From a virus (lineage: Duplodnaviria > Caudoviricetes): 64,000 nt of DNA. A program made the position numbers and the translations under genes. Below the pieces are notes generated by a model. That model was not told where the DNA came from and did not search any database. It saw only the letters and a program-made list of their open reading frames with translations. The stretch is taken from positions 1 through 64,000 of the IMG/VR virus record IMGVR_UViG_3300005336_000019, one strand, 5' to 3'. Shown here in pieces: positions 6,541 through 55,005 of the stretch. Each line of letters opens with the position of its first letter. Positions within the stretch are counted from its first letter, which is position 1.

Positions 6541-6984
6541 ATGGGTGAGTGGACGCAGCACGGTCAGGTCTGGTCGGACGACGGCGACGTGGGCGGTGAC
6601 ACGCAGATCGGGAAGGCGGCCAGCGTCCGGTTCGTGAACCCGGACTACCCCGGCGCCCGGGTCACGGTGTACGCCTACGCCCACGCCCCCGAGCGGCCGA
6701 TCGAGGCGAAGGTCGGATCGATCGAGGTCCACATGGGCTACGGCCCGGACCTGGGCAACCTCGGGATCGAGTCGCAGGTCTGGTTCGAGATCGACGACGA
6801 CGCCGCCGGGGACGCCGACGAGTGGGACCCGACCTGGTCGGAGATCAAGCACGAGTCGCTGGACTCGTTCATCGGGCCCGGAACGGACGAGCAGCGCGTG
6901 GCCGTGGCCGAGGCGGCGGCACTCGCCTGGATCCGGTCGTACGACCCGAAGAAGTTCATCGACTGGGACGGCAAGCGGTTCTGA
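6541..6984 (+). CDS. hypothetical protein
   Basis: RBS, GC3 bias. Confidence 0.8.
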   Translation: MGEWTQHGQVWSDDGDVGGDTQIGKAASVRFVNPDYPGARVTVYAYAHAPERPIEAKVGSIEVHMGYGPDLGNLGIESQVWFEIDDDAAGDADEWDPTWSEIKHESLDSFIGPGTDEQRVAVAEAAALAWIRSYDPKKFIDWDGKRF

Positions 6985-8582: not shown

Positions 8583-8919
8583 GCTGAGCTGCACCTGTGA
8601 TCCCGGCGAATCGGTCGCCGGGACCCGGCAGGAGATCATCGAGCAGCGGCTGGCCCCGCTCTTCAGCCTCACAGTTCCCGAGGTTCACGCCCTGCTGGAT
8701 CTGCTGGACCGGGCGCTCGACCTCGCGCTCGACATCCCCGACGACGAGCGGAACCCGGAGGGCGGGGAGGCCGAGCGGCTGATGGCGCAGGAGTCCGGCC
8801 GCACCGAGGGCTGGATCAAGAACTTCCTGAGCGCATGGGAGTCAGTGTCCGACGCGCTGGACCGTGAACTGCACGAGAAGCACGGCCCGTGGGGCGGACT
8901 CTTCGGCAAACAGTCCTGA
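8575..8919 (+). CDS. hypothetical protein
   Basis: ORF tiling. Confidence 0.75.
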   Translation: MAELSCTCDPGESVAGTRQEIIEQRLAPLFSLTVPEVHALLDLLDRALDLALDIPDDERNPEGGEAERLMAQESGRTEGWIKNFLSAWESVSDALDRELHEKHGPWGGLFGKQS

Positions 8920-8924
8920 AGAAC

Positions 8925-8953
8925 TGGAACTTCACGGCCTAGGTCAGTAGGAT
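8925..8953 (+). promoter_or_regulatory. promoter TGGAAC-N17-TAGGAT with operator CGGCCTAGGTCA (8935-8946) in the spacer
   Basis: sigma70-like spacing plus palindrome. Confidence 0.65.
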
Positions 8954-8995
8954 TCGAGGGCCCCGGGAGAACCCCGGGGCCGGAGGAGGAACGGC

Positions 8996-9343
8996 ATGCA
9001 GCAGATGGACGAGTACCGGCGCACGGCCGAGTTTGTGGACGTGGTGGCCGGTGAGCCGGGCCAGGTGCACACGGTGTACCGCTTCCCGAACACGGAGGAG
9101 GGGCACGGCCGGGCGATGGAGTACCGCAACGCTTACAACGAGTCCCTGCGCGAAGCGATGAAGATTCCGAAGGCCGATCTGGAGCTGGAGCGGCCCGACT
9201 GGAACCAGCGCCGGGAGGAGTACGACCGGGCCGAGAAGGTCGAGCTGTACCGGTACAACCAGGCGGGCCTGTCCTACGTGCACCCGCCCAAGCTGATCGG
9301 CCCCGGTGACCCGATGCCGACCGACTACCCGCACGACTTCTGA
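8996..9343 (+). CDS. hypothetical protein
   Basis: RBS GGAGGAGG. Confidence 0.8.
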   Translation: MQQMDEYRRTAEFVDVVAGEPGQVHTVYRFPNTEEGHGRAMEYRNAYNESLREAMKIPKADLELERPDWNQRREEYDRAEKVELYRYNQAGLSYVHPPKLIGPGDPMPTDYPHDF

Positions 9344-9354
9344 GGAGATCCGGG

Positions 9355-9663
9355 ATGGCCGAGCTGACCCGCGACACCACGCACTACATCGTCCACTCCA
9401 CGGTCGTCGACCCGGGACCGAACTCCACCTTCGGTACATCGGCACCGATCTCCGGCCCGCACGCCCTGGAGCGGGCGGTCAAGGCCGCGCACGAGGAACT
9501 GAAGGGGCGGCGCCGGGCCTTCGTCACGGCCCGGGATGACGCTTCCCGGATCCTCGCCGTGATCCCGGTCGTGGACTACCCGGTGTTCGGTGACACCCAC
9601 GTCCCCGAGCACGCACAGGACGTCCTCCGGGGCCTGTTCGACGACCTGGACTGGACGGTCTGA
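9355..9663 (+). CDS. hypothetical protein
   Basis: RBS GAGGAG. Confidence 0.8.
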   Translation: MAELTRDTTHYIVHSTVVDPGPNSTFGTSAPISGPHALERAVKAAHEELKGRRRAFVTARDDASRILAVIPVVDYPVFGDTHVPEHAQDVLRGLFDDLDWTV

Positions 9664-9734
9664 CACGGACGAAACCGGGCCCCTGGGAAGGGCTCCCGGT
9701 AGGCGGAACAGGACCGCCCTGACGAGTCCCGTCA
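9661..9734 (+). ncRNA. type II hammerhead ribozyme HH1 (cleavage after GUA, 9701)
   Basis: GGAC-GAAA-stem III CCGGG/CCCGG-UA-stem I GGCGG/CCGCC-CUGACGA-GUCC; all core residues present. Confidence 0.92.
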
Positions 9735-9754
9735 GCACGGAAAGGGAGAAGAAC

Positions 9755-10108
9755 ATGCCGGTGAGCTACGCCTTCAAGAAGCCCGACGGGACCGATCAGG
9801 ACCCGGCCGCCGACCTGAGCCCGGTGCAGCAGGCGTTCCTGGTGCTGAACGAGATGGGAATCGGGATCCCCCGGCTCGACCGCTCCACGCTGGACGAGTT
9901 CGTGCGGCGTGCGGACCTGTTGCAGGCGTACGTCGGCATCGTGTGGCGCAACGGTGACGGAACGCCCCGGATCTTCACCCGGGCGGACTTCACCGAGCTG
10001 CTGCCCGGCGCCCGGACGAACTGGACGGCCCGCAGCAAGCGGGACTTCGACCAGGCCATGAAGAAGGAGATCGACGCGTACTGGAACAGCGTCGACAGTC
10101 GGAAGTGA
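9755..10108 (+). CDS. hypothetical protein (paralog of 18129-18464)
   Basis: Shared GI.R.D..T.DEFVRRADL...Y.G. Confidence 0.85.
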   Translation: MPVSYAFKKPDGTDQDPAADLSPVQQAFLVLNEMGIGIPRLDRSTLDEFVRRADLLQAYVGIVWRNGDGTPRIFTRADFTELLPGARTNWTARSKRDFDQAMKKEIDAYWNSVDSRK

Positions 10109-10117
10109 GGGACGCCT

Positions 10118-10420
10118 GTGGTGGCGGACGAGAAGGGTGACGAGTACGAGGAGACGGCGATCGGCTACGCCATCGGCGTCCTCACGTACATGCAGAACGG
10201 CGGGAAGCTGTCGAGCATCGAGGCGACCGCCTCGGAGATCGTCCGGCTGGCCGGTCGGGAGCTGGCGCAGAAGATGCCGGGCCCGGAGAAGGCCCGAGTG
10301 CTGATGGAGTCCGTCGAGGAGATGCGGCTCCGGCACAACAACCTGAACGCCGACGAGGTGTTCGAGGACATGATGGCGCAGGCGCGGAACGCCGGGCGCC
10401 TTCGGAGCGAGGGGAAGTAG
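10118..10420 (+). CDS. hypothetical protein
   Basis: ORF tiling. Confidence 0.8.
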   Translation: MVADEKGDEYEETAIGYAIGVLTYMQNGGKLSSIEATASEIVRLAGRELAQKMPGPEKARVLMESVEEMRLRHNNLNADEVFEDMMAQARNAGRLRSEGK

Positions 10421-10423
10421 AAC

Positions 10424-10870
10424 GTGGACAGCTTCAGGAACGTGGCCGCCGACGTGGTGACGGCGCACGAGAGCGGGACCTACCGGGCGGGCGCCAACCC
10501 GGCGGCCGATCACGTGGTCGAGGTGATCGGGAAGTACGGCAAGTGGGCGGTGCTCGCCGCCGCCGAGCTGATCAAGGATGACCCGGACACCTTCGAGGAC
10601 ATCCCGGCCGACAAGGTCATGGAGTTCATGGAGGAGAACTACCTGCACTCCGGGGCCACCGTCGGCCACGCGCTGGAGACCTACGCCAAGGACGCCGGGG
10701 ACCACACCGAGCTGGGCCGCCTGTACAACGCGCTCGACAAGGCGGGCGGCGTGGACCGCTTCGACTGGGGCTCGTACGCCGACGACGGCATGACCCCGAC
10801 GATCGGCCTGCACTTCGTCGTGATGCCGGTCCCGGCGGGCGAGTCCGGCACGTTCATCTTCGGGAGCTGA
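10424..10870 (+). CDS. possible ArdA-like C-terminal domain protein
   Basis: FMEENYL...RFDWGSYADD...FIFG resembles the ArdA C-terminal YIDYE.YARD...VF. Confidence 0.45.
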   Translation: MDSFRNVAADVVTAHESGTYRAGANPAADHVVEVIGKYGKWAVLAAAELIKDDPDTFEDIPADKVMEFMEENYLHSGATVGHALETYAKDAGDHTELGRLYNALDKAGGVDRFDWGSYADDGMTPTIGLHFVVMPVPAGESGTFIFGS

Positions 10871-20487: not shown

Positions 20488-20970
20488 ATGCTGGACGCCG
20501 ACCTCGTCCACGAGACGGGACACTTCAGCTACGCCGACGCCGAGCACCTGGCTGACCTGTGGAACCGGGCCTACCCGGCGATGCGGCAGATCATCACCCG
20601 GTACATCGAGAGCCAGCGGGAGTACATCGAGCGGAGGGGCTGGGTCATCGACCCGAATCACCCCCACGCCGAAGTGCTCCAGGAGCGCGCCACCCCGGAA
20701 CGGAAGGCCCGGTACCGGCTGAAGCTGTCGGAAGAGCTGCGCCGGGACCTCGGCCAGCTCGACCGGGGCACGCACAAGCCGTGCACCCGCAGCCCGGGAT
20801 GCTTCTCGGTGACGGCCGCCTACATGGCGGTGCGGAGCCTGATCAGTCACAGCTCCCTCAACAGTGAGGGGCTGGCCAACATCTACCGCCTGGCCGCCGA
20901 TCTGGCCGAGGCGGAGGAGCGGGTCAACGAGGCCCGCAAGAAGTGGCACCAGGAACAGGAGAAGAAGTGA
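20488..20970 (+). CDS. hypothetical protein
   Basis: ORF tiling. Confidence 0.8.
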   Translation: MLDADLVHETGHFSYADAEHLADLWNRAYPAMRQIITRYIESQREYIERRGWVIDPNHPHAEVLQERATPERKARYRLKLSEELRRDLGQLDRGTHKPCTRSPGCFSVTAAYMAVRSLISHSSLNSEGLANIYRLAADLAEAEERVNEARKKWHQEQEKK

Positions 20971-21209
20971 ACGCAGAAGTCGAGGTCCCCGTCGCCGAGA
21001 GCATCGCCGTGGGTCTGGCGATCGTCTTCTCGGATCTTCCGCAGAGCACCATCACGTGGATGTCCGAGCTGATGGTGCGCACCTGGCACGAGGGGCCGGA
21101 CCGCTCCGACGACCTGCTCTTCAACGCCCTCGACAAGGAGGTCCGGGCGGGCAACGAGGACGCCATCCGCATGGTCCTCGCCGCCGCCCGGCGCGGTCTG
21201 AAGGTCTGA
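20967..21209 (+). CDS. hypothetical protein (paralog of 21308-21529)
   Basis: FSDLPQSTITWM...VRAGNEDAI. Confidence 0.8.
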   Translation: MNAEVEVPVAESIAVGLAIVFSDLPQSTITWMSELMVRTWHEGPDRSDDLLFNALDKEVRAGNEDAIRMVLAAARRGLKV

Positions 21210-21279
21210 CTCCGAGGCCGAAACCCCTGGAAGGGGGTCGTGGGACGAATGGAAGTCCCGCCTGACGATGGCCGTCAGA
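21205..21279 (+). ncRNA. type II hammerhead ribozyme HH2 (cleavage after GUC, 21239)
   Basis: GGCC-GAAA-CCCC/GGGG-UC-stem I GUGGGAC/GUCCCGC-CUGACGA-U-GGCC; outer stem UCUGAC/GUCAGA. Confidence 0.93.
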
Positions 21280-21307
21280 AGAATTCGGAACGGGAGGAGA
21301 ACGCATC

Positions 21308-21529
21308 ATGGAACTGCCCAACCGCGCCGAGGTGCGCAGCCAGATCAGCTCGAAGTTCCCGGGCCTGCCCAACGACACCCTGGACTGGGTGGCGGGCATG
21401 CTCTCCGACAAGATCGAGGCCGACTGGCAGACCGCCGACGCCGAGTTCCACCGCGAGATGGAGCGCGCGATCCGGGCCGGTGAAGAGCACGCGATCCTCG
21501 TGGCCCTCGCCGCGCTCAAGGCCGTCTGA
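21308..21529 (+). CDS. hypothetical protein (paralog of 20967-21209)
   Basis: FPGLPNDTLDWV...IRAGEEHAI. Confidence 0.8.
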   Translation: MELPNRAEVRSQISSKFPGLPNDTLDWVAGMLSDKIEADWQTADAEFHREMERAIRAGEEHAILVALAALKAV

Positions 21530-27849: not shown

Positions 27850-28179
27850 GTGAAGCACGAGTTCGCCATCGACTACGCCGGGCTCACTCCGCAGCAGAAG
27901 CTCGTGATTCTGGAGGAGATGGGATTCAAGGAGATTCCGCCCTCCGAGCACGGCACGAACTGTCTGTCCCGGCAGGGCAGCGGCATCATCTGCGACTGTC
28001 TCCAGGGCGTGACGACCTGGGGCGCTCCGCAGGACGTGAAGAAGTACCTGGGCGAGACGCACGAGGAACGCGCCGAGTTTGCGGCCCGGCGCCAGCTCTA
28101 CCTGAACGAGGGCGAGGGTGAGAGCCCCGGATCCTGGATCTATCACCTGGAGAAGAACGCCCCCCGCTACTGGCACTGA
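27850..28179 (+). CDS. hypothetical protein
   Basis: Purine-rich RBS. Confidence 0.8.
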   Translation: MKHEFAIDYAGLTPQQKLVILEEMGFKEIPPSEHGTNCLSRQGSGIICDCLQGVTTWGAPQDVKKYLGETHEERAEFAARRQLYLNEGEGESPGSWIYHLEKNAPRYWH

Positions 28180-28769: not shown

Positions 28770-29050
28770 ACCCCGAACTGTTCAAGGCGGGAAGCGTCGA
28801 GCTGCCGAACGGCGGGTGCATCACCGTCGTGGAATTCATGGGGCATCCGATCGCCGAGGGCCCGGCCGAGGCCCTGGATGGCGAGGGTGCGGCCGAGAGG
28901 GTTCAGGAGGCTTTCTGTGCTGCTCTCGTCGCCGCCCTGTCCATGGTGATGGGGAGCGAGCAGTTCGGCCGGTACGCGCCCAGGGAGTGGACGTACTGGC
29001 ACCCGATGGCCCCGCCCCTGGCGAGGCTTCCGAAGGGAGAAGAGGGATGA
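28766..29050 (+). CDS. hypothetical protein (tandem paralog 3)
   Basis: VVEFMGHPI motif. Confidence 0.8.
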   Translation: MNPELFKAGSVELPNGGCITVVEFMGHPIAEGPAEALDGEGAAERVQEAFCAALVAALSMVMGSEQFGRYAPREWTYWHPMAPPLARLPKGEEG

Positions 29051-29295
29051 AGGGAATGGACGGGCAGCTCATGCGAGCCGTGGCCCGGCTCCACGACGAC
29101 GAGCTGGAAACCCGGCGCCGCTGGGCCCAGCACATCCGGGAGGAGTTCGGGAAGTACCACGACCACTCCGGCGGCGGCGAGTGCGGCGCCTGCGGGGCGA
29201 TCCAGGCGGCGAACTGGATGGACCCGGACTATGTCAAGGATGGCCCGCTGGCGGAGCCGTTCGGGACCTGGCGGGACCGTCACCCCAGCATGTGA
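29047..29295 (+). CDS. hypothetical protein
   Basis: ATGA overlap. Confidence 0.75.
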   Translation: MKGMDGQLMRAVARLHDDELETRRRWAQHIREEFGKYHDHSGGGECGACGAIQAANWMDPDYVKDGPLAEPFGTWRDRHPSM

Positions 29296-29296
29296 T

Positions 29297-29366
29297 CTGA
29301 CCAGAGGCCGAAACCGGGCAGCCAGCCCGGTCGTGCAGTGAGACTGCACCTGACGATGGCCGTCAG
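29297..29366 (+). ncRNA. type II hammerhead ribozyme HH3 (cleavage after GUC, 29332)
   Basis: GGCC-GAAA-CCGGGC/GCCCGG-UC-stem I GUGCAG/CUGCAC-CUGACGA-U-GGCC; outer stem CUGAC/GUCAG. Confidence 0.93.
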
Positions 29367-50298: not shown

Positions 50299-50371
50299 TG
50301 CTCCTGGCAGGAATTGAACCTGCGACATCCGGATCCGGAATCCGGCGCTCTATCCCCTGAGCTACAGGAGC
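50299..50371 (-). tRNA. tRNA-Arg(CCG)
   Basis: Cloverleaf; anticodon arm CCGGA-TTCCGGA-TCCGG; no encoded CCA. Confidence 0.93.
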
Positions 50372-50380
50372 TTTCCTCTC

Positions 50381-50776
50381 TCACCAGATGTCGTACAGCA
50401 TCCGGCGAGGAACCTTCTCGGCCTTCTCGTACAGCCGACGTTCGAGTTCGCCCTTCGTGCGGCGCCCGGCTTCCAGCTTGCTCTTCACGTAGCGCCGGTT
50501 GGCGCGCTCGTGCTTACCAGCCCAGTAGGTCCGGCTGGAACTGGGGGTCCAGGCCCCGGTGTAGGTCCACCAGCGAGCGGTACGCCTCACCTTCCGGGGC
50601 TGCGGCCTGCGGCCCTGCCTCTCGGCGTCACGGAGTTCCGCAGCGCTGTAGCGCAGGTCGTAGACCTCGTGCTCGCGCACCGGAGTGATCGGCCGCTTGC
50701 GCCAGTACATCCTGTAGCCGTCAGGCCAGTCGCGCTGGTCGAACTTTCCGGGCGTGTGATGCGTCGTCTTGCCCAT
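50381..50776 (-). CDS. basic Arg/Trp-rich hypothetical protein within the tRNA cluster
   Basis: RBS AGGAGG; ends ...RMLYDIW. Confidence 0.8.
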   Translation of the reverse strand: MGKTTHHTPGKFDQRDWPDGYRMYWRKRPITPVREHEVYDLRYSAAELRDAERQGRRPQPRKVRRTARWWTYTGAWTPSSSRTYWAGKHERANRRYVKSKLEAGRRTKGELERRLYEKAEKVPRRMLYDIW

Positions 50777-50877
50777 CGGAATTCATCCTCCTAGGGCCGC
50801 GAATTTCGCGGACCTAGGTGAATCCGGTGACGATGTCCATCACCCCTCCAAGCTGTTCAGGCACGGTTGTTCCCAAG

Positions 50878-50975
50878 TGCGCGAGGCAGGGATCGAACCT
50901 GCACTGGACGTCTCCACAGGGCCTTTCCGAGTGCCCTGTTCGCCGGGCTCTGACTCGGAGTTCCCTTACACGCGC
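50878..50975 (-). ncRNA. tRNA-like RNA with aberrant D and anticodon arms
   Basis: Acceptor GCGCGTG/CTCGCGC; canonical T arm GCAGG-TTCGATC-CCTGC; 10-nt anticodon-position loop. Confidence 0.75.
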
Positions 50976-51066
50976 GACCGCACTGCGCAATGCGGTCCTT
51001 TACCACCGACTGTAATTCCGACCGGGTTTTTCAGACCACGGAAGGATATGGTGTCGTCGGCACACG

Positions 51067-51139
51067 CTCTCCTGACTGGACTTGAACCAGTAACATCCGG
51101 ATTAACAATCCGGCGCTCTGCCGGTTGAGCTACAGGAGA
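51067..51139 (-). tRNA. tRNA-Asn(GTT)
   Basis: Cloverleaf; loop TTGTTAA. Confidence 0.95.
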
Positions 51140-51274
51140 TCGAATCTGAAATTGTAGTGGGCCTCATCCCTAGCACCACGCGGCGCACCGACCTTGTTCT
51201 GCTGCGCTTCTCAACTGTTCCGGTTGTCGGGCGGATGGCAACCGGACCGCACTCCTATCTCCGCCACGTGCACG

Positions 51275-51346
51275 CTCCCCCGTCTGGACTTGAACCAAAA
51301 CTTCCGATTCCAGAGACCGGCGGTCTGCCAATTAACCTACGGGGGA
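51275..51346 (-). tRNA. tRNA-Gln(CTG)
   Basis: Cloverleaf; loop CTCTGGA. Confidence 0.93.
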
Positions 51347-51459
51347 TCGCTCTTGAATTGTTGGCAACCGGACGGCAATGCTTCCACGCATGGACTATCT
51401 TCGCATGTATGTCCCACCCGCCACAGTGGGGCTGCGTTGATAGCTTACCGTCCGGCCAG

Positions 51460-51535
51460 TGGCCCCGGCCCGATTTGAACGGGCGACCTCTCGCTTTTCA
51501 GGCGAGCGCTCTTTCGCGAACTGAGCTACAGGGCC
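51460..51535 (-). tRNA. tRNA-Phe(GAA)
   Basis: Cloverleaf; loop CTGAAAA. Confidence 0.93.
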
Positions 51536-51686
51536 TTGCACCCCTTGATGTATAGCTGGGCAGGGGCCGCCCTCCACTCGCCTCCCGGAGAAGGTTGGCT
51601 CATGGACTCGCTTTGCCTCACTCTCTGCCCGGTGGATAGTGGCCTTGTGAGCCACGAACTCCACCGGAATCTGCCTCCGAAGCCAG

Positions 51687-51760
51687 CGGTCCCGACGGGA
51701 TTTGAACCCGCGACCTCTCGGATGACAACCGAGTGCTCTGCCGAACTGAGCCACGAGACC
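51687..51760 (-). tRNA. tRNA-Asp(GTC)
   Basis: Cloverleaf; loop TTGTCAT. Confidence 0.95.
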
Positions 51761-51855
51761 ATTGCTTCTTACCGCTGTTGAGTTGAAAAGGGAGCCCCGC
51801 TTTCCCGGCCTCCGCCTTACGGCGGGGCTCCCGATAGACCCGTCAGGGGGTCTCG

Positions 51856-51929
51856 TGGAGATGGAGGGATTCGAACCCCCGTCCTTCCGATCCGTAGTCG
51901 GCTGCCCCATCCAACTGGGCCACACCTCC
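51856..51929 (-). tRNA. tRNA-Arg(ACG)
   Basis: Cloverleaf; loop CTACGGA. Confidence 0.93.
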
Positions 51930-52019
51930 ATCAGCCTTTCACCCTTCGCGCCAAGCGTGACCAAGGCAGGATCCAGGCCGACCGCATCCAAGCCCCAGGA
52001 AGCCGTGAGGATGCGGCAG

Positions 52020-52092
52020 TACGCCCTACTGGACTTGAACCAGTGACACGAGGATTAAGAATCCCCTGCTCTGCCAACTGAGCTAAGGGCGC
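52020..52092 (-). tRNA. tRNA-Lys(CTT)
   Basis: Cloverleaf; loop TTCTTAA. Confidence 0.95.
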
Positions 52093-52099
52093 GCGTTCT

Positions 52100-52222
52100 T
52101 CAGTTCTGTCTGTCGTCCTTGGGGCCCCAGTAGTGGCCCGTGTAGACGTGGACGGGGTATCCGTCCTTCTGCACCTTCTTCAGGTGCCCTTCGTACGTCC
52201 GAGCCTTGCACTTACAGCTCAC
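52100..52222 (-). CDS. small hypothetical protein (40 aa, MSCKCKARTY...)
   Basis: RBS AAGAAGGT before GTG. Confidence 0.6.
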   Translation of the reverse strand: MSCKCKARTYEGHLKKVQKDGYPVHVYTGHYWGPKDDRQN

Positions 52223-52378
52223 GATCGCACCTTCTTTCTTGTCCCGATTCCAACAGGAACCCCTGGTTTCCCGGGACAGCGTTCCACCAGGGGTCTGCCT
52301 AGCGTCCGGCCGGTTCTGTCCTCCCGATCCTTCTGCTGGCATACGGCTTACGGATTATGAGTCCGCGCCGCACCTTCG

Positions 52379-52452
52379 TATCCCTGACTGGACTTGAACC
52401 AGTGGCCTTTCCCTTATGAGGGGAGTGCTCTGACCGACTGAGCTACAGGGAT
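52379..52452 (-). tRNA. tRNA with CAT anticodon (elongator Met or Ile2)
   Basis: Cloverleaf; loop CTCATAA; lacks initiator hallmarks. Confidence 0.92.
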
Positions 52453-52457
52453 CTGCG

Positions 52458-52530
52458 AGCCCCCGACCGGAATTGAACCGATGGCATCCGACTTACGAAG
52501 ACGGCGCTCTACCGACTGAGCTACGGAGGC
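52458..52530 (-). tRNA. tRNA-Thr(CGT)
   Basis: Cloverleaf; loop TTCGTAA. Confidence 0.93.
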
Positions 52531-52798
52531 ATGAACTCCGGGTCCTAGGAGGGACGCAGACTTGCATGGGATAGCGAGCTGAGAAACAACGCTAGGCCCC
52601 GGAGTTCTGTCGGGAGAATCCTGCCCGATCTTTAATCGACCACCCGCTGGATCGATGGACAGGTTCCTCCCTTTGCGAGACACCAACCTCGCGATTCCCA
52701 GGCTGTAGACCTGGCGGCAGCGGGAACTGCGGACTCCGGGCGGAGTGGACGACGTCGTAAGGGAAAGAGGTACTTCCGATACGCCGCCCGGAGTCCAG

Positions 52799-52873
52799 TC
52801 GGAATGGCGGGATTTGAACCCGCGACCTCTCGCTCCCGAAGCGAGTGCTCTACGCAAGCTGAGCCACATTCCG
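52799..52873 (-). tRNA. tRNA-Pro(CGG)
   Basis: Cloverleaf; loop TTCGGGA. Confidence 0.95.
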
Positions 52874-52922
52874 ATTGAAGGTTCCCCAGGGTGACGGGGG
52901 GGTTGTAACCCCGGGGAACCAG

Positions 52923-52997
52923 CAGGGATAGCAGGATTTGAACCTACGACACGCCGCTTTGGAGACGGCTGCTCTGGCCGAACTGAGCTATATCCCT
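52923..52997 (-). tRNA. tRNA-Trp(CCA)
   Basis: Cloverleaf; loop CTCCAAA. Confidence 0.95.
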
Positions 52998-54631: not shown

Positions 54632-55005
54632 CTCCAGGAATCAGAGGGAAGCGGCCAGTACCAGCGGAAGCTGTTGCCGTCCGAGTCGGCTCGTTCCACC
54701 CTGACACCGCCGAGCGGATCCAGCTCCAGCCAGTACTCCCGCCAGGGCGTCAGGGCGGCGACGTCCAGCCAGCCGTCCCGGTCGATGGGCGACATGTGCT
54801 CGTCGTACCCGCGCGTGATGCAGTGGATGGTCACCCACGGACCGGGCGTACCGATGCCGATCCCCGCCTGGTCCGGGTGGCCGAGTTCGCTGACGATGAC
54901 CATGTCGCCGCCGACTCCAAGGTGCCGACGGCCGCCGATCAGCGGCTTGCGGTTGATCCGGTCGGCCATGGTGCGCAGGTCCAGGCGGGTGCCGTCGATC
55001 CTCAT
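54613..55005 (-). CDS. hypothetical protein
   Basis: ATGA overlap. Confidence 0.75.
   Translation of the reverse strand: MRIDGTRLDLRTMADRINRKPLIGGRRHLGVGGDMVIVSELGHPDQAGIGIGTPGPWVTIHCITRGYDEHMSPIDRDGWLDVAALTPWREYWLELDPLGGVRVERADSDGNSFRWYWPLPSDSWRWIQCG

Follow-up and report, generated by a model that had tools for sequence, protein, structure and literature searches.

A predicted type II hammerhead ribozyme with a core-complementary 3' tail at a stop codon of a Streptomyces phage relative

A stretch of viral DNA of 64,000 nt, referred to here as the window, carries at positions 9660-9735 of its plus strand the sequence of a complete type II hammerhead ribozyme, in which stems I and III are capped and a two-part stem II is open. 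We consider it probable, at roughly 0.8, that this is a functional type II hammerhead acting in a polycistronic message of a Streptomyces phage of about 185 kb from the group of JustBecause, Kela, and Satis, whose cleavage, product fate, and any response to translation we infer. This reading is based on the motif itself, its conservation, the covariation of the stems among paralogues, the family-wide position of the upstream stop codon, and the complementarity between the tail and the catalytic core.

The window comprises the initial 64 kb of an IMG/VR virus record that is 76.5 kb long and estimated to be about 40% complete. Over positions 9000-10400, its closest named relatives were the Streptomyces phages JustBecause and Kela, of about 185 kb each and with 77% DNA identity; further named relatives of the window were Satis, Kradal, Quantum, and EhyElimayoE. 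The G+C content of the DNA here was 67%. The ribozyme lies on the same (plus) strand as both of its conserved flanking genes, 9355-9663 and 9755-10108, and the end-to-end alignment of these ORFs with annotated proteins of relatives indicated that they are real genes. Searches of Pfam and PHROGs with eight flanking proteins, including the products of these two genes, gave no match. Because no promoter-like or terminator-like site was detected in 8800-10500, the two genes are probably co-transcribed. The element did not qualify as an intrinsic terminator, as no U run was present 3' of stem III or of the tail. Elsewhere in the window, a cluster of 11 tRNA genes (50299-52997) was located on the minus strand, opposite to the genes that bear the hammerheads.

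The original prediction, which was made from the sequence alone, had described a hammerhead with a GUA cleavage site at 9661-9734 and had placed the UGA stop codon of gene 9355-9663 in the outer part of stem II. Every element was recovered base for base where it had been drawn: the core, the GAAA, the GUA site, and the topology were all present, and the UGA at 9661-9663 lies inside the UGAC at 9661-9664. The outer helix can be lengthened by one more pair, C9660-G9735, to CUGAC/GUCAG. The pairs adjoining the core are all standard in the window copy, namely G9726-C9670 (10.1-11.1), G9702-C9718 (1.1-2.1), and A9674-U9700 (15.1-16.1), and C9730 is bulged in the active hammerhead fold. The MFE structure of 9661-9734 was exactly the hammerhead three-way junction with an unpaired core (-32.4 kcal/mol), and that of the whole stop-to-start stretch, 9660-9757, was also the hammerhead fold (-35.4 kcal/mol). 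The coordinates are summarized in Table 1.

Table 1 Features of the ribozyme at 9660-9735, its flanking genes, and the two paralogous copies in the window.
Feature	Positions	Strand	Details and basis
Upstream gene	9355..9663	+	102 aa; ORF list; aligns over its full length with JustBecause gene 295 at 86% aa identity, same stop
'Clamp' CUGAC, 5' strand of outer stem II	9660..9664	+	Holds the stop; pairs with GUCAG 9731-9735; MFE fold
Stop UGA of gene 9355-9663	9661..9663	+	Within the outer stem II strand of the ribozyme
Stem II internal loop AC	9665..9666	+	Sequence
GGAC, 5' strand of inner stem II	9667..9670	+	C9670 = 11.1; sequence, MFE fold
Core G12 A13 A14 A15.1 (GAAA)	9671..9674	+	Invariant in all orthologues
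Stem III hairpin	9674..9700	+	A15.1-U16.1, CCGGG/CCCGG, internal loop, CCCU/AGGG, GGGA tetraloop 9685-9688
Predicted cleavage site, H17 = A9701	9701..9702	+	Cut between 9701 and 9702; hammerhead consensus
Stem I hairpin	9702..9718	+	GGCGG 9702-9706 / CCGCC 9714-9718, 7-nt loop AACAGGA
Core C3-A9, CUGACGA	9719..9725	+	N7 = C; aligns to the RF02276 consensus
GUCC, 3' strand of inner stem II	9726..9729	+	G9726 = 10.1; sequence, MFE fold
Tail CGUCAG	9730..9735	+	Partner: CUGAC 9660-9664 (active) or core CUGACG 9719-9724 (masked)
RBS GGGAG (9744-9748) and ATG start (9755-9757) of downstream gene	9744..9757	+	Sequence
Downstream gene	9755..10108	+	117 aa; 73% aa identity to Satis gene 299, end to end
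HH-C, paralogous type II hammerhead	21206..21278	+	Descriptor; R1 49.2 bits
HH-B, paralogous type II hammerhead	29297..29366	+	RF02276 31.7 bits (match at 29306); R1 82 bits

The fold energy of 9661-9734 was ordinary for G+C-rich DNA (z = -1.22), as 20 of 200 shuffles folded equally well. The best match of the ribozyme in Rfam was the type II hammerhead family RF02276, with 16.6 bits against a gathering cut-off of 37 bits; at the gathering threshold, Rfam returned 11 tRNAs and no hammerhead in the window. A strict type II descriptor, comprising the core, GAAA, U-H, and three stems, matched the window three times, at 9667, 21216, and 29306 and always on the plus strand, and gave no match on either strand of 200 dinucleotide-preserving shuffles of the window. 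This descriptor overlooks copies with bulged stems, such as the Satis orthologue, and some covariance-model matches. A covariance model termed R1, built from eight paralogous sequences without the 9660-9735 copy, recovered that copy at 21.5 bits, with a rough E value of 0.003 for the whole window. In the alignment of the eight paralogues, both sides had changed in 10 of 18 pairs and 144 of 144 cells were paired; the latter figure holds partly by construction, since the paralogues were selected with a descriptor that demands pairing, whereas the count of double changes does not. The covariation score of this alignment was reached by none of 500 shuffles, and slid registers came nowhere near it. 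Inner stem II, for instance, occurred as GGCC/GGCC, GACC/GGUC, and GGAC/GUCC. In the 9660-9735 copy, stems I and III are invariant among its four orthologues and therefore provide no compensatory change of their own. On this sequence evidence, we concluded that the hammerhead at 9660-9735 is real and of a class already known, within a subclass that the Rfam threshold misses.

Several weaker matches in the window were rejected. The RF02276 matches at 6847-6900 (13.3 bits, E 4.5) and 28000-28022 (9.2 bits) failed the descriptor, the R1 matches at 54878 and 40498 (E >2) were without stems I and III, and a match to RF01783 (b55) within stem III was dropped at 19.6 bits against a threshold of 70. 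The stretch at 54878-54901 (+) resembles both stem II strands of the Streptomyces clade and the core (R1 10.5 bits, E 2.1), and may be a remnant or a chance likeness.

JustBecause, Kela, and Satis carry the same ribozyme, with 92% identity, in the corresponding intergenic gaps; in the comparison with the same relatives, identity was 67-88% for the flanking genes and 68% for the spacer. The stem III hairpin at 9674-9700 was 100% identical to those of all three phages. Differences among the orthologues were confined to the loops, H17, or the edge of stem II, and the core and stems I and III were unchanged. All 13 invariant core positions were intact in five phages. H17 was A in the window, U in JustBecause and Kela, and C in Satis, and never G. 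The orthologues of JustBecause and Kela (L001:2163-2237 and L002:2163-2237) place a U opposite a U at 10.1/11.1, next to the core, and Perreault et al. 2011 (PMC3088659) treated such a mispair adjoining the core as a ground for discarding candidates. In another register, these two orthologues form a 5-bp stem II with an unpaired U on each side, and many paralogues have an additional U or C between A9 and stem II.

These features bear on the possibility that the sequence is hammerhead-like and no longer cleaves, being either a relic or a structured spacer of stabilizing hairpins only. The U-U mispair of the two orthologues, the sub-threshold Rfam score, the short stem I (5 bp), and the lack of the classical type II pseudoknot between loop I and the tail are all consistent with such a loss, as is a contig from an RNA library that spans the cleavage site. 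However, the core has remained intact in five phages despite the divergence of its flanks, H17 has been only A, U, or C, and two better-scoring paralogues are present in the same genome. We therefore regard a non-cleaving element as very improbable.

The library contig itself can be read in two ways. Part of the stretch was present in 20 of the 24 sequencing runs listed, all of them DNA except X19 (recorded as RNA) and X20 (guessed to be RNA, probably DNA), and the run data are contigs, in which RNA ends are not visible. RNA-seq library X19 contained a 253-nt contig, from a close relative, matching 9564-9815 with three differences and unbroken over the cut site, which represents either an uncut transcript or DNA carry-over in the library. 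The X20 contig over 9646-9841 was from a more distant relative. A loose end in X19 at 29337, 4 nt from the predicted cut of HH-B, was not counted as evidence.

The window contains three hammerheads in total, all on the plus strand and 8-12 kb apart. In HH-C, the CUGAC at 21206-21210 contains the stop UGA (21207-21209) of ORF 20943-21209, the predicted cut follows 21239, and the tail GUCAG is at 21274-21278. In HH-B, the CUGAC is at 29297-29301, the predicted cut follows 29332, and the tail GUCAG is at 29362-29366; the in-frame stop UGA (29293-29295) of ORF 28816-29295 lies 2 nt before the CUGAC, and the UGA of the helix is out of frame. Each relative gave two or three matches to R1 and three to five to RF02276, with at least three ribozymes at syntenic gaps. 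Satis gene 248 (72 codons) has one ribozyme on each side. The GenBank records of JustBecause and Satis list coding genes only, with an RNA feature at none of the six ribozyme-bearing gaps examined. Denser arrays were observed in other IMG/VR contigs. On a 33.8-kb contig (L160 / L041), R1 gave seven matches. Six of them fell within about 2.3 kb, with a single match in each gap between very small ORFs; the remaining one was weak and lay on the minus strand about 19 kb away. An 18.8-kb contig (L183, L190, L191, L463) carried at least five hammerheads within 4 kb.

We then considered the position of the stop codon. In the 9660-9735 copy, the first base of the stop lies 10 nt before G12. The stop annotated by the depositors was the UGA of CUGAC in six of six cases (JustBecause genes 295, 251, and 269; Satis genes 300, 248, and 249), and this UGA served as the in-frame stop in 17 of 19 clade members, the other two, including HH-B, stopping 4-5 nt upstream. 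In Satis, which has no homologue of gene 9355-9663, the same UGAC is joined to the stop of another gene, the one that precedes it; hence, the junction of ribozyme and stop outlives the gain and loss of genes. The unit that is missing in Satis (L003:1469-1902 compared with 8996-9755 of the window) spans exactly from one UGA to the next.

The same juxtaposition was common across the family. Two scans of IMG/VR, whose patterns specified no more than the core, GUC, GAAAC, and GGCC as the stem II strand and left the tail and 5' flank free, yielded at least 193 distinct type II hammerheads at 175 loci or more, picked regardless of their flanks. The upstream stop, taken from the longest frame, began 5-13 nt before G12 in 161 of the 193 matches listed, the commonest classes being a one-base overlap with stem II (UAG, 48) and direct abutment (34). 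The corresponding fractions among the matches listed were 101/147 in a third scan with the stem II strand AGGC and 65/69 in a first, tail-biased scan. That first scan is uninformative on the tail, because both CUGACGA and GUCAG were fixed in its pattern. The base directly 5' of stem II was nearly always A among the matches listed (IMG/VR loci L199-L447), supplied by the stop codon (overlapping UAG, or abutting UAA or UGA) or by a short spacer (CA, for example). UAG was the commonest stop (64/161 among the matches listed), which is unusual for phages. In a class with a 21-23-nt hairpin I (e.g. L454, L457, L479, L484), one group of related contigs had the stop 23 or 34 nt upstream and not at the stem. 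The phrase 'built onto the stop codon' in the original prediction is accordingly true of this locus, but it describes a family-wide habit that is not special to it.

Such a habit is expected of a constitutive processing element with no link to translation, in which the stop would have come to lie in stem II through tight packing and through a strand that needs the sequence CUGAC to match the tail. The register recurs on many unrelated contigs. Neighbouring JustBecause genes without a hammerhead between them are mostly separated by -8 to +14 nt, and since genes in these phages overlap or lie only a few bases apart, compaction alone predicts the juxtaposition. In addition, the conserved stem II strand GGCCGAAAC contains no stop triplet, so that a stop at -6/-7 is simply at the closest possible position. 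In HH-B, the in-frame stop precedes the CUGAC and the helix UGA is not used, and among the matches listed a 5' CTGA was no commoner with a tail (14/67) than without one (21/126). On the other hand, compactness does not extend to the 3' side of the ribozyme, where the first ATG lies at a median distance of 21 nt among the 193 matches listed. Moreover, all 16 of the 16 clade members aligned have an unchanged CUGAC/GUCAG helix, while every other helix covaries, and this helix is retained even where its UGA is not a stop. Genome compaction explains the juxtaposition as well as regulation does, and we give a purely constitutive element a chance only a little short of even.

In the GGCC scans, the sequence of the 3' tail, the five nt following stem II, depended on the core base N7. 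Among the 105 listed copies with U7, AUCAG occurred in 24, GUCAG in 2, another NUCAG in 1, and no tail in 78; among the 88 listed copies with C7, the counts were 0, 41, 1, and 46, respectively. The association was strong (Fisher p = 3e-16 for the listed matches, treated without regard to shared ancestry), and its pattern, in which A-U and G-C are common, G-U is rare, and A-C is absent, is that expected if the tail pairs with C3-N7. In the AGGC scan, the 141 U7 copies listed included 9 with AUCAG and 5 with GUCAG. Near-identical paralogues on the 18.8-kb contig combined C7 with GUCAG, U7 with AUCAG, and U7 with GUCAG, which amounts to compensatory change within one contig. Where the tail was displaced, its preceding base was C in 12 of 14 cases among the matches listed and would extend the helix to G8. 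The tail was missing in 124 of the 193 family members listed and is thus an optional feature that marks a subclass. No 5' partner for the tail was enriched outside the Streptomyces clade in the CTGA comparison given above, and the core is the only consistent partner of the tail across the family. Among the 61 tail-bearing copies listed, 58 had an MFE fold that pairs the core, with a median cost of 1.7 kcal/mol to free it.

A pairing of the tail with loop I was also considered. The GUCAG of the 9660-9735 copy has no complement in its loop I, AACAGGA, and a Watson-Crick pseudoknot between tail and loop I was rejected for the family, in which loop I varies (UNAYG-like) and the tail is constant. 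Among the matches listed, the classical pseudoknot between loop I and the tail was confined to a separate class, with a hairpin I of 21-23 nt and a stem II of 3 bp, in which it takes the place of the masking tail.

In the Streptomyces clade, the tail can pair with a second partner, the clamp. The clamp helix never covaries because its sequence is held by a chain of constraints, from the core CUGAC to the tail GUCAG, from the tail to the clamp CUGAC, and from the clamp to a UGA that is usable as a stop. By the same token, the outer strand may carry its UGA as a by-product, as this strand must match the tail, which in turn matches a core CUGAC that itself contains UGA. The covarying core-complementary tail, together with its second, stop-codon partner in the clade, is a more interesting feature than the overlap with the stop.

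According to the hammerhead consensus, the transcript of the polycistronic message would most likely cut itself between A9701 and G9702. Hammerhead cleavage leaves a 2',3'-cyclic phosphate and a 5'-hydroxyl. The upstream message would keep its stop codon and end in the strong stem III hairpin with the cyclic phosphate, and the downstream message would begin with the 5'-hydroxyl on a fully paired stem I hairpin. RNases that depend on the 5' end act poorly on an RNA whose 5' end is paired and lacks a monophosphate. In the 3' product, CGUCAG would pair with CUGACG of the core to form a second hairpin adjoining stem I, hiding the core and leaving the RBS free, and this hairpin should make the cleavage irreversible. 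Consistent with these steps, the predicted 3' products of all three window copies were two abutting hairpins (stem I and core-tail), and in the 9660-9735 copy the RBS was unpaired and the predicted 5' product ended in stem III. Before the cut, the tail would pair with the CUGAC at 9660-9664, which would lengthen stem II and favour the active fold. As modelled, the best reading is a processing element whose tail would trap the cut product and in which the clamp of the clade happens to hold the stop.

The original prediction had further proposed that a terminating ribosome disrupts the fold and thereby couples cleavage to translation of the upstream gene. The bacterial ribosome reaches about 9 nt 3' of the A-site codon, and with the stop 10 nt before G12, a ribosome terminating here must open the clamp and inner stem II and cover G12-A13, whatever the origin of the arrangement. 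Since the clamp strand contains the upstream stop, such a ribosome should also free the tail and hand it over to the core. The coupling would therefore be mechanically sound, and we hold it to be plausible, although the odds are against it.

Extended to the tail, this idea becomes a switch made of the clamp CUGAC with its stop, the core CUGACG, and the tail CGUCAG. A ribosome occupying the stop would leave the core masked by the tail and the message uncut; in the absence of translation, the tail would close the clamp and cleavage would follow. Fold predictions were consistent with two competing states. For 9660-9757, the active fold (-35.4 kcal/mol) and the masked core-tail fold (-34.2 kcal/mol) differed by 1.2 kcal/mol, and for HH-B the values were -34.5 and -35.3 kcal/mol, respectively. 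When the stop and the next 15 nt were masked, the core-tail hairpin was the best predicted fold in all three window copies; in the 9660-9735 copy, CUGACG at 9719-9724 paired with CGUCAG at 9730-9735. In HH-C (21206-21311), the stem II internal loop UCCGA can pair with the downstream GGGAGG RBS region in the MFE structure (-43.8 kcal/mol, versus -34.4 for the core-free fold), a pairing not seen in the other two window copies. The positions of the stops also fit a switch: 17 of the 19 clade members stop at the UGA of CUGAC, the two others are still within reach of the ribosome, and in Satis a different upstream gene has been joined to the same UGAC. However, these are computations, and nearest-neighbour energies leave out tertiary contacts. 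A ribosome on the stop would block the active fold even without a tail, and most tail-bearing relatives have no clamp, which suggests that the primary role of the tail lies elsewhere than in gating. A ribosome-gated switch is therefore a tentative reading that we judge doubtful.

The proposed switch would resemble known systems in part. In trp-type attenuation, a ribosome-dependent leader chooses between 1:2, 2:3, and 3:4 pairing. Likewise, the position of the ribosome would here choose between two mutually exclusive helices, but the proposed output is self-cleavage rather than transcription termination, and there is no leader peptide. In hammerheads of viroids and satellite RNAs, such as satRPV, inactive alternative folds sequester the ribozyme and control the timing of cleavage. 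Like them, the present element has a rival pairing that ties up part of the ribozyme. Theirs operate in the rolling-circle replication of circular RNAs, whereas ours involves a 3' tail of 5-6 nt beside a stop codon in a phage mRNA.

Among described hammerheads, the closest are those of RF02276 (clan CL00010; PMC3088659), which share the catalytic core, the permutation, and the intergenic phage setting on the coding strand; the 9660-9735 copy differs in scoring 16.6 bits against the cut-off of 37. A pseudoknot between loop I and the 3' tail is the tertiary contact that has been reported for most type II members. Unlike these, the 9660-9735 copy has no such pseudoknot; an internal loop and the outer CUGAC/GUCAG helix prolong its stem II, and its tail is complementary to the catalytic core. 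Clustered prophage hammerheads that bracket single genes have also been described (Perreault et al. 2011, PMC3088659, Figure 3), with the proposal that they cut long transcripts into gene-length messages. The elements reported here are similar in that several occur per genome, on one strand, and bracket small genes of unknown function, and Satis gene 248 is enclosed by two copies in the same manner. They differ in residing in a Streptomyces phage of 185 kb and lytic type, and in the spacing of the window copies, which lie 8-12 kb apart. In the main text of PMC3088659, the term 'stop codon' occurs 0 times, and neither masking by a tail nor a stop-codon register is described. Passages of PMC3088659, PMC8782182, PMC6765202, and PMC13725137 likewise contained no stop-codon register or core-masking tail in phage type II hammerheads, and no literature on this subclass was found among the main texts of freely accessible articles. 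A review (PMC6765202) still describes the role of hammerhead ribozymes in bacteria and phages as unresolved.

The subclass described here is invisible at the standard database threshold. Its covarying core-complementary tail and stop-holding clamp make the regulation of cleavage a simple bench question, and the tail-bearing ribozyme could also find use as a compact insulator in synthetic operons. It is conceivable from these models, though we think it rather unlikely, that this phage hammerhead subclass is a translation-sensing ribozyme, in which the tail, covarying with N7, toggles between the core (off) and the CUGAC stop strand (on). If so, ribosomes terminating upstream would keep the message uncut and a loss of translation would lead to its cleavage; the 3' product would then be held by its tail as a double hairpin at the 5' end, which would prevent both re-ligation and decay. 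Should trapping the product be all that the tail does, this would still account for the way in which a reversible ribozyme gives a phage message a clean and stable 5' end.
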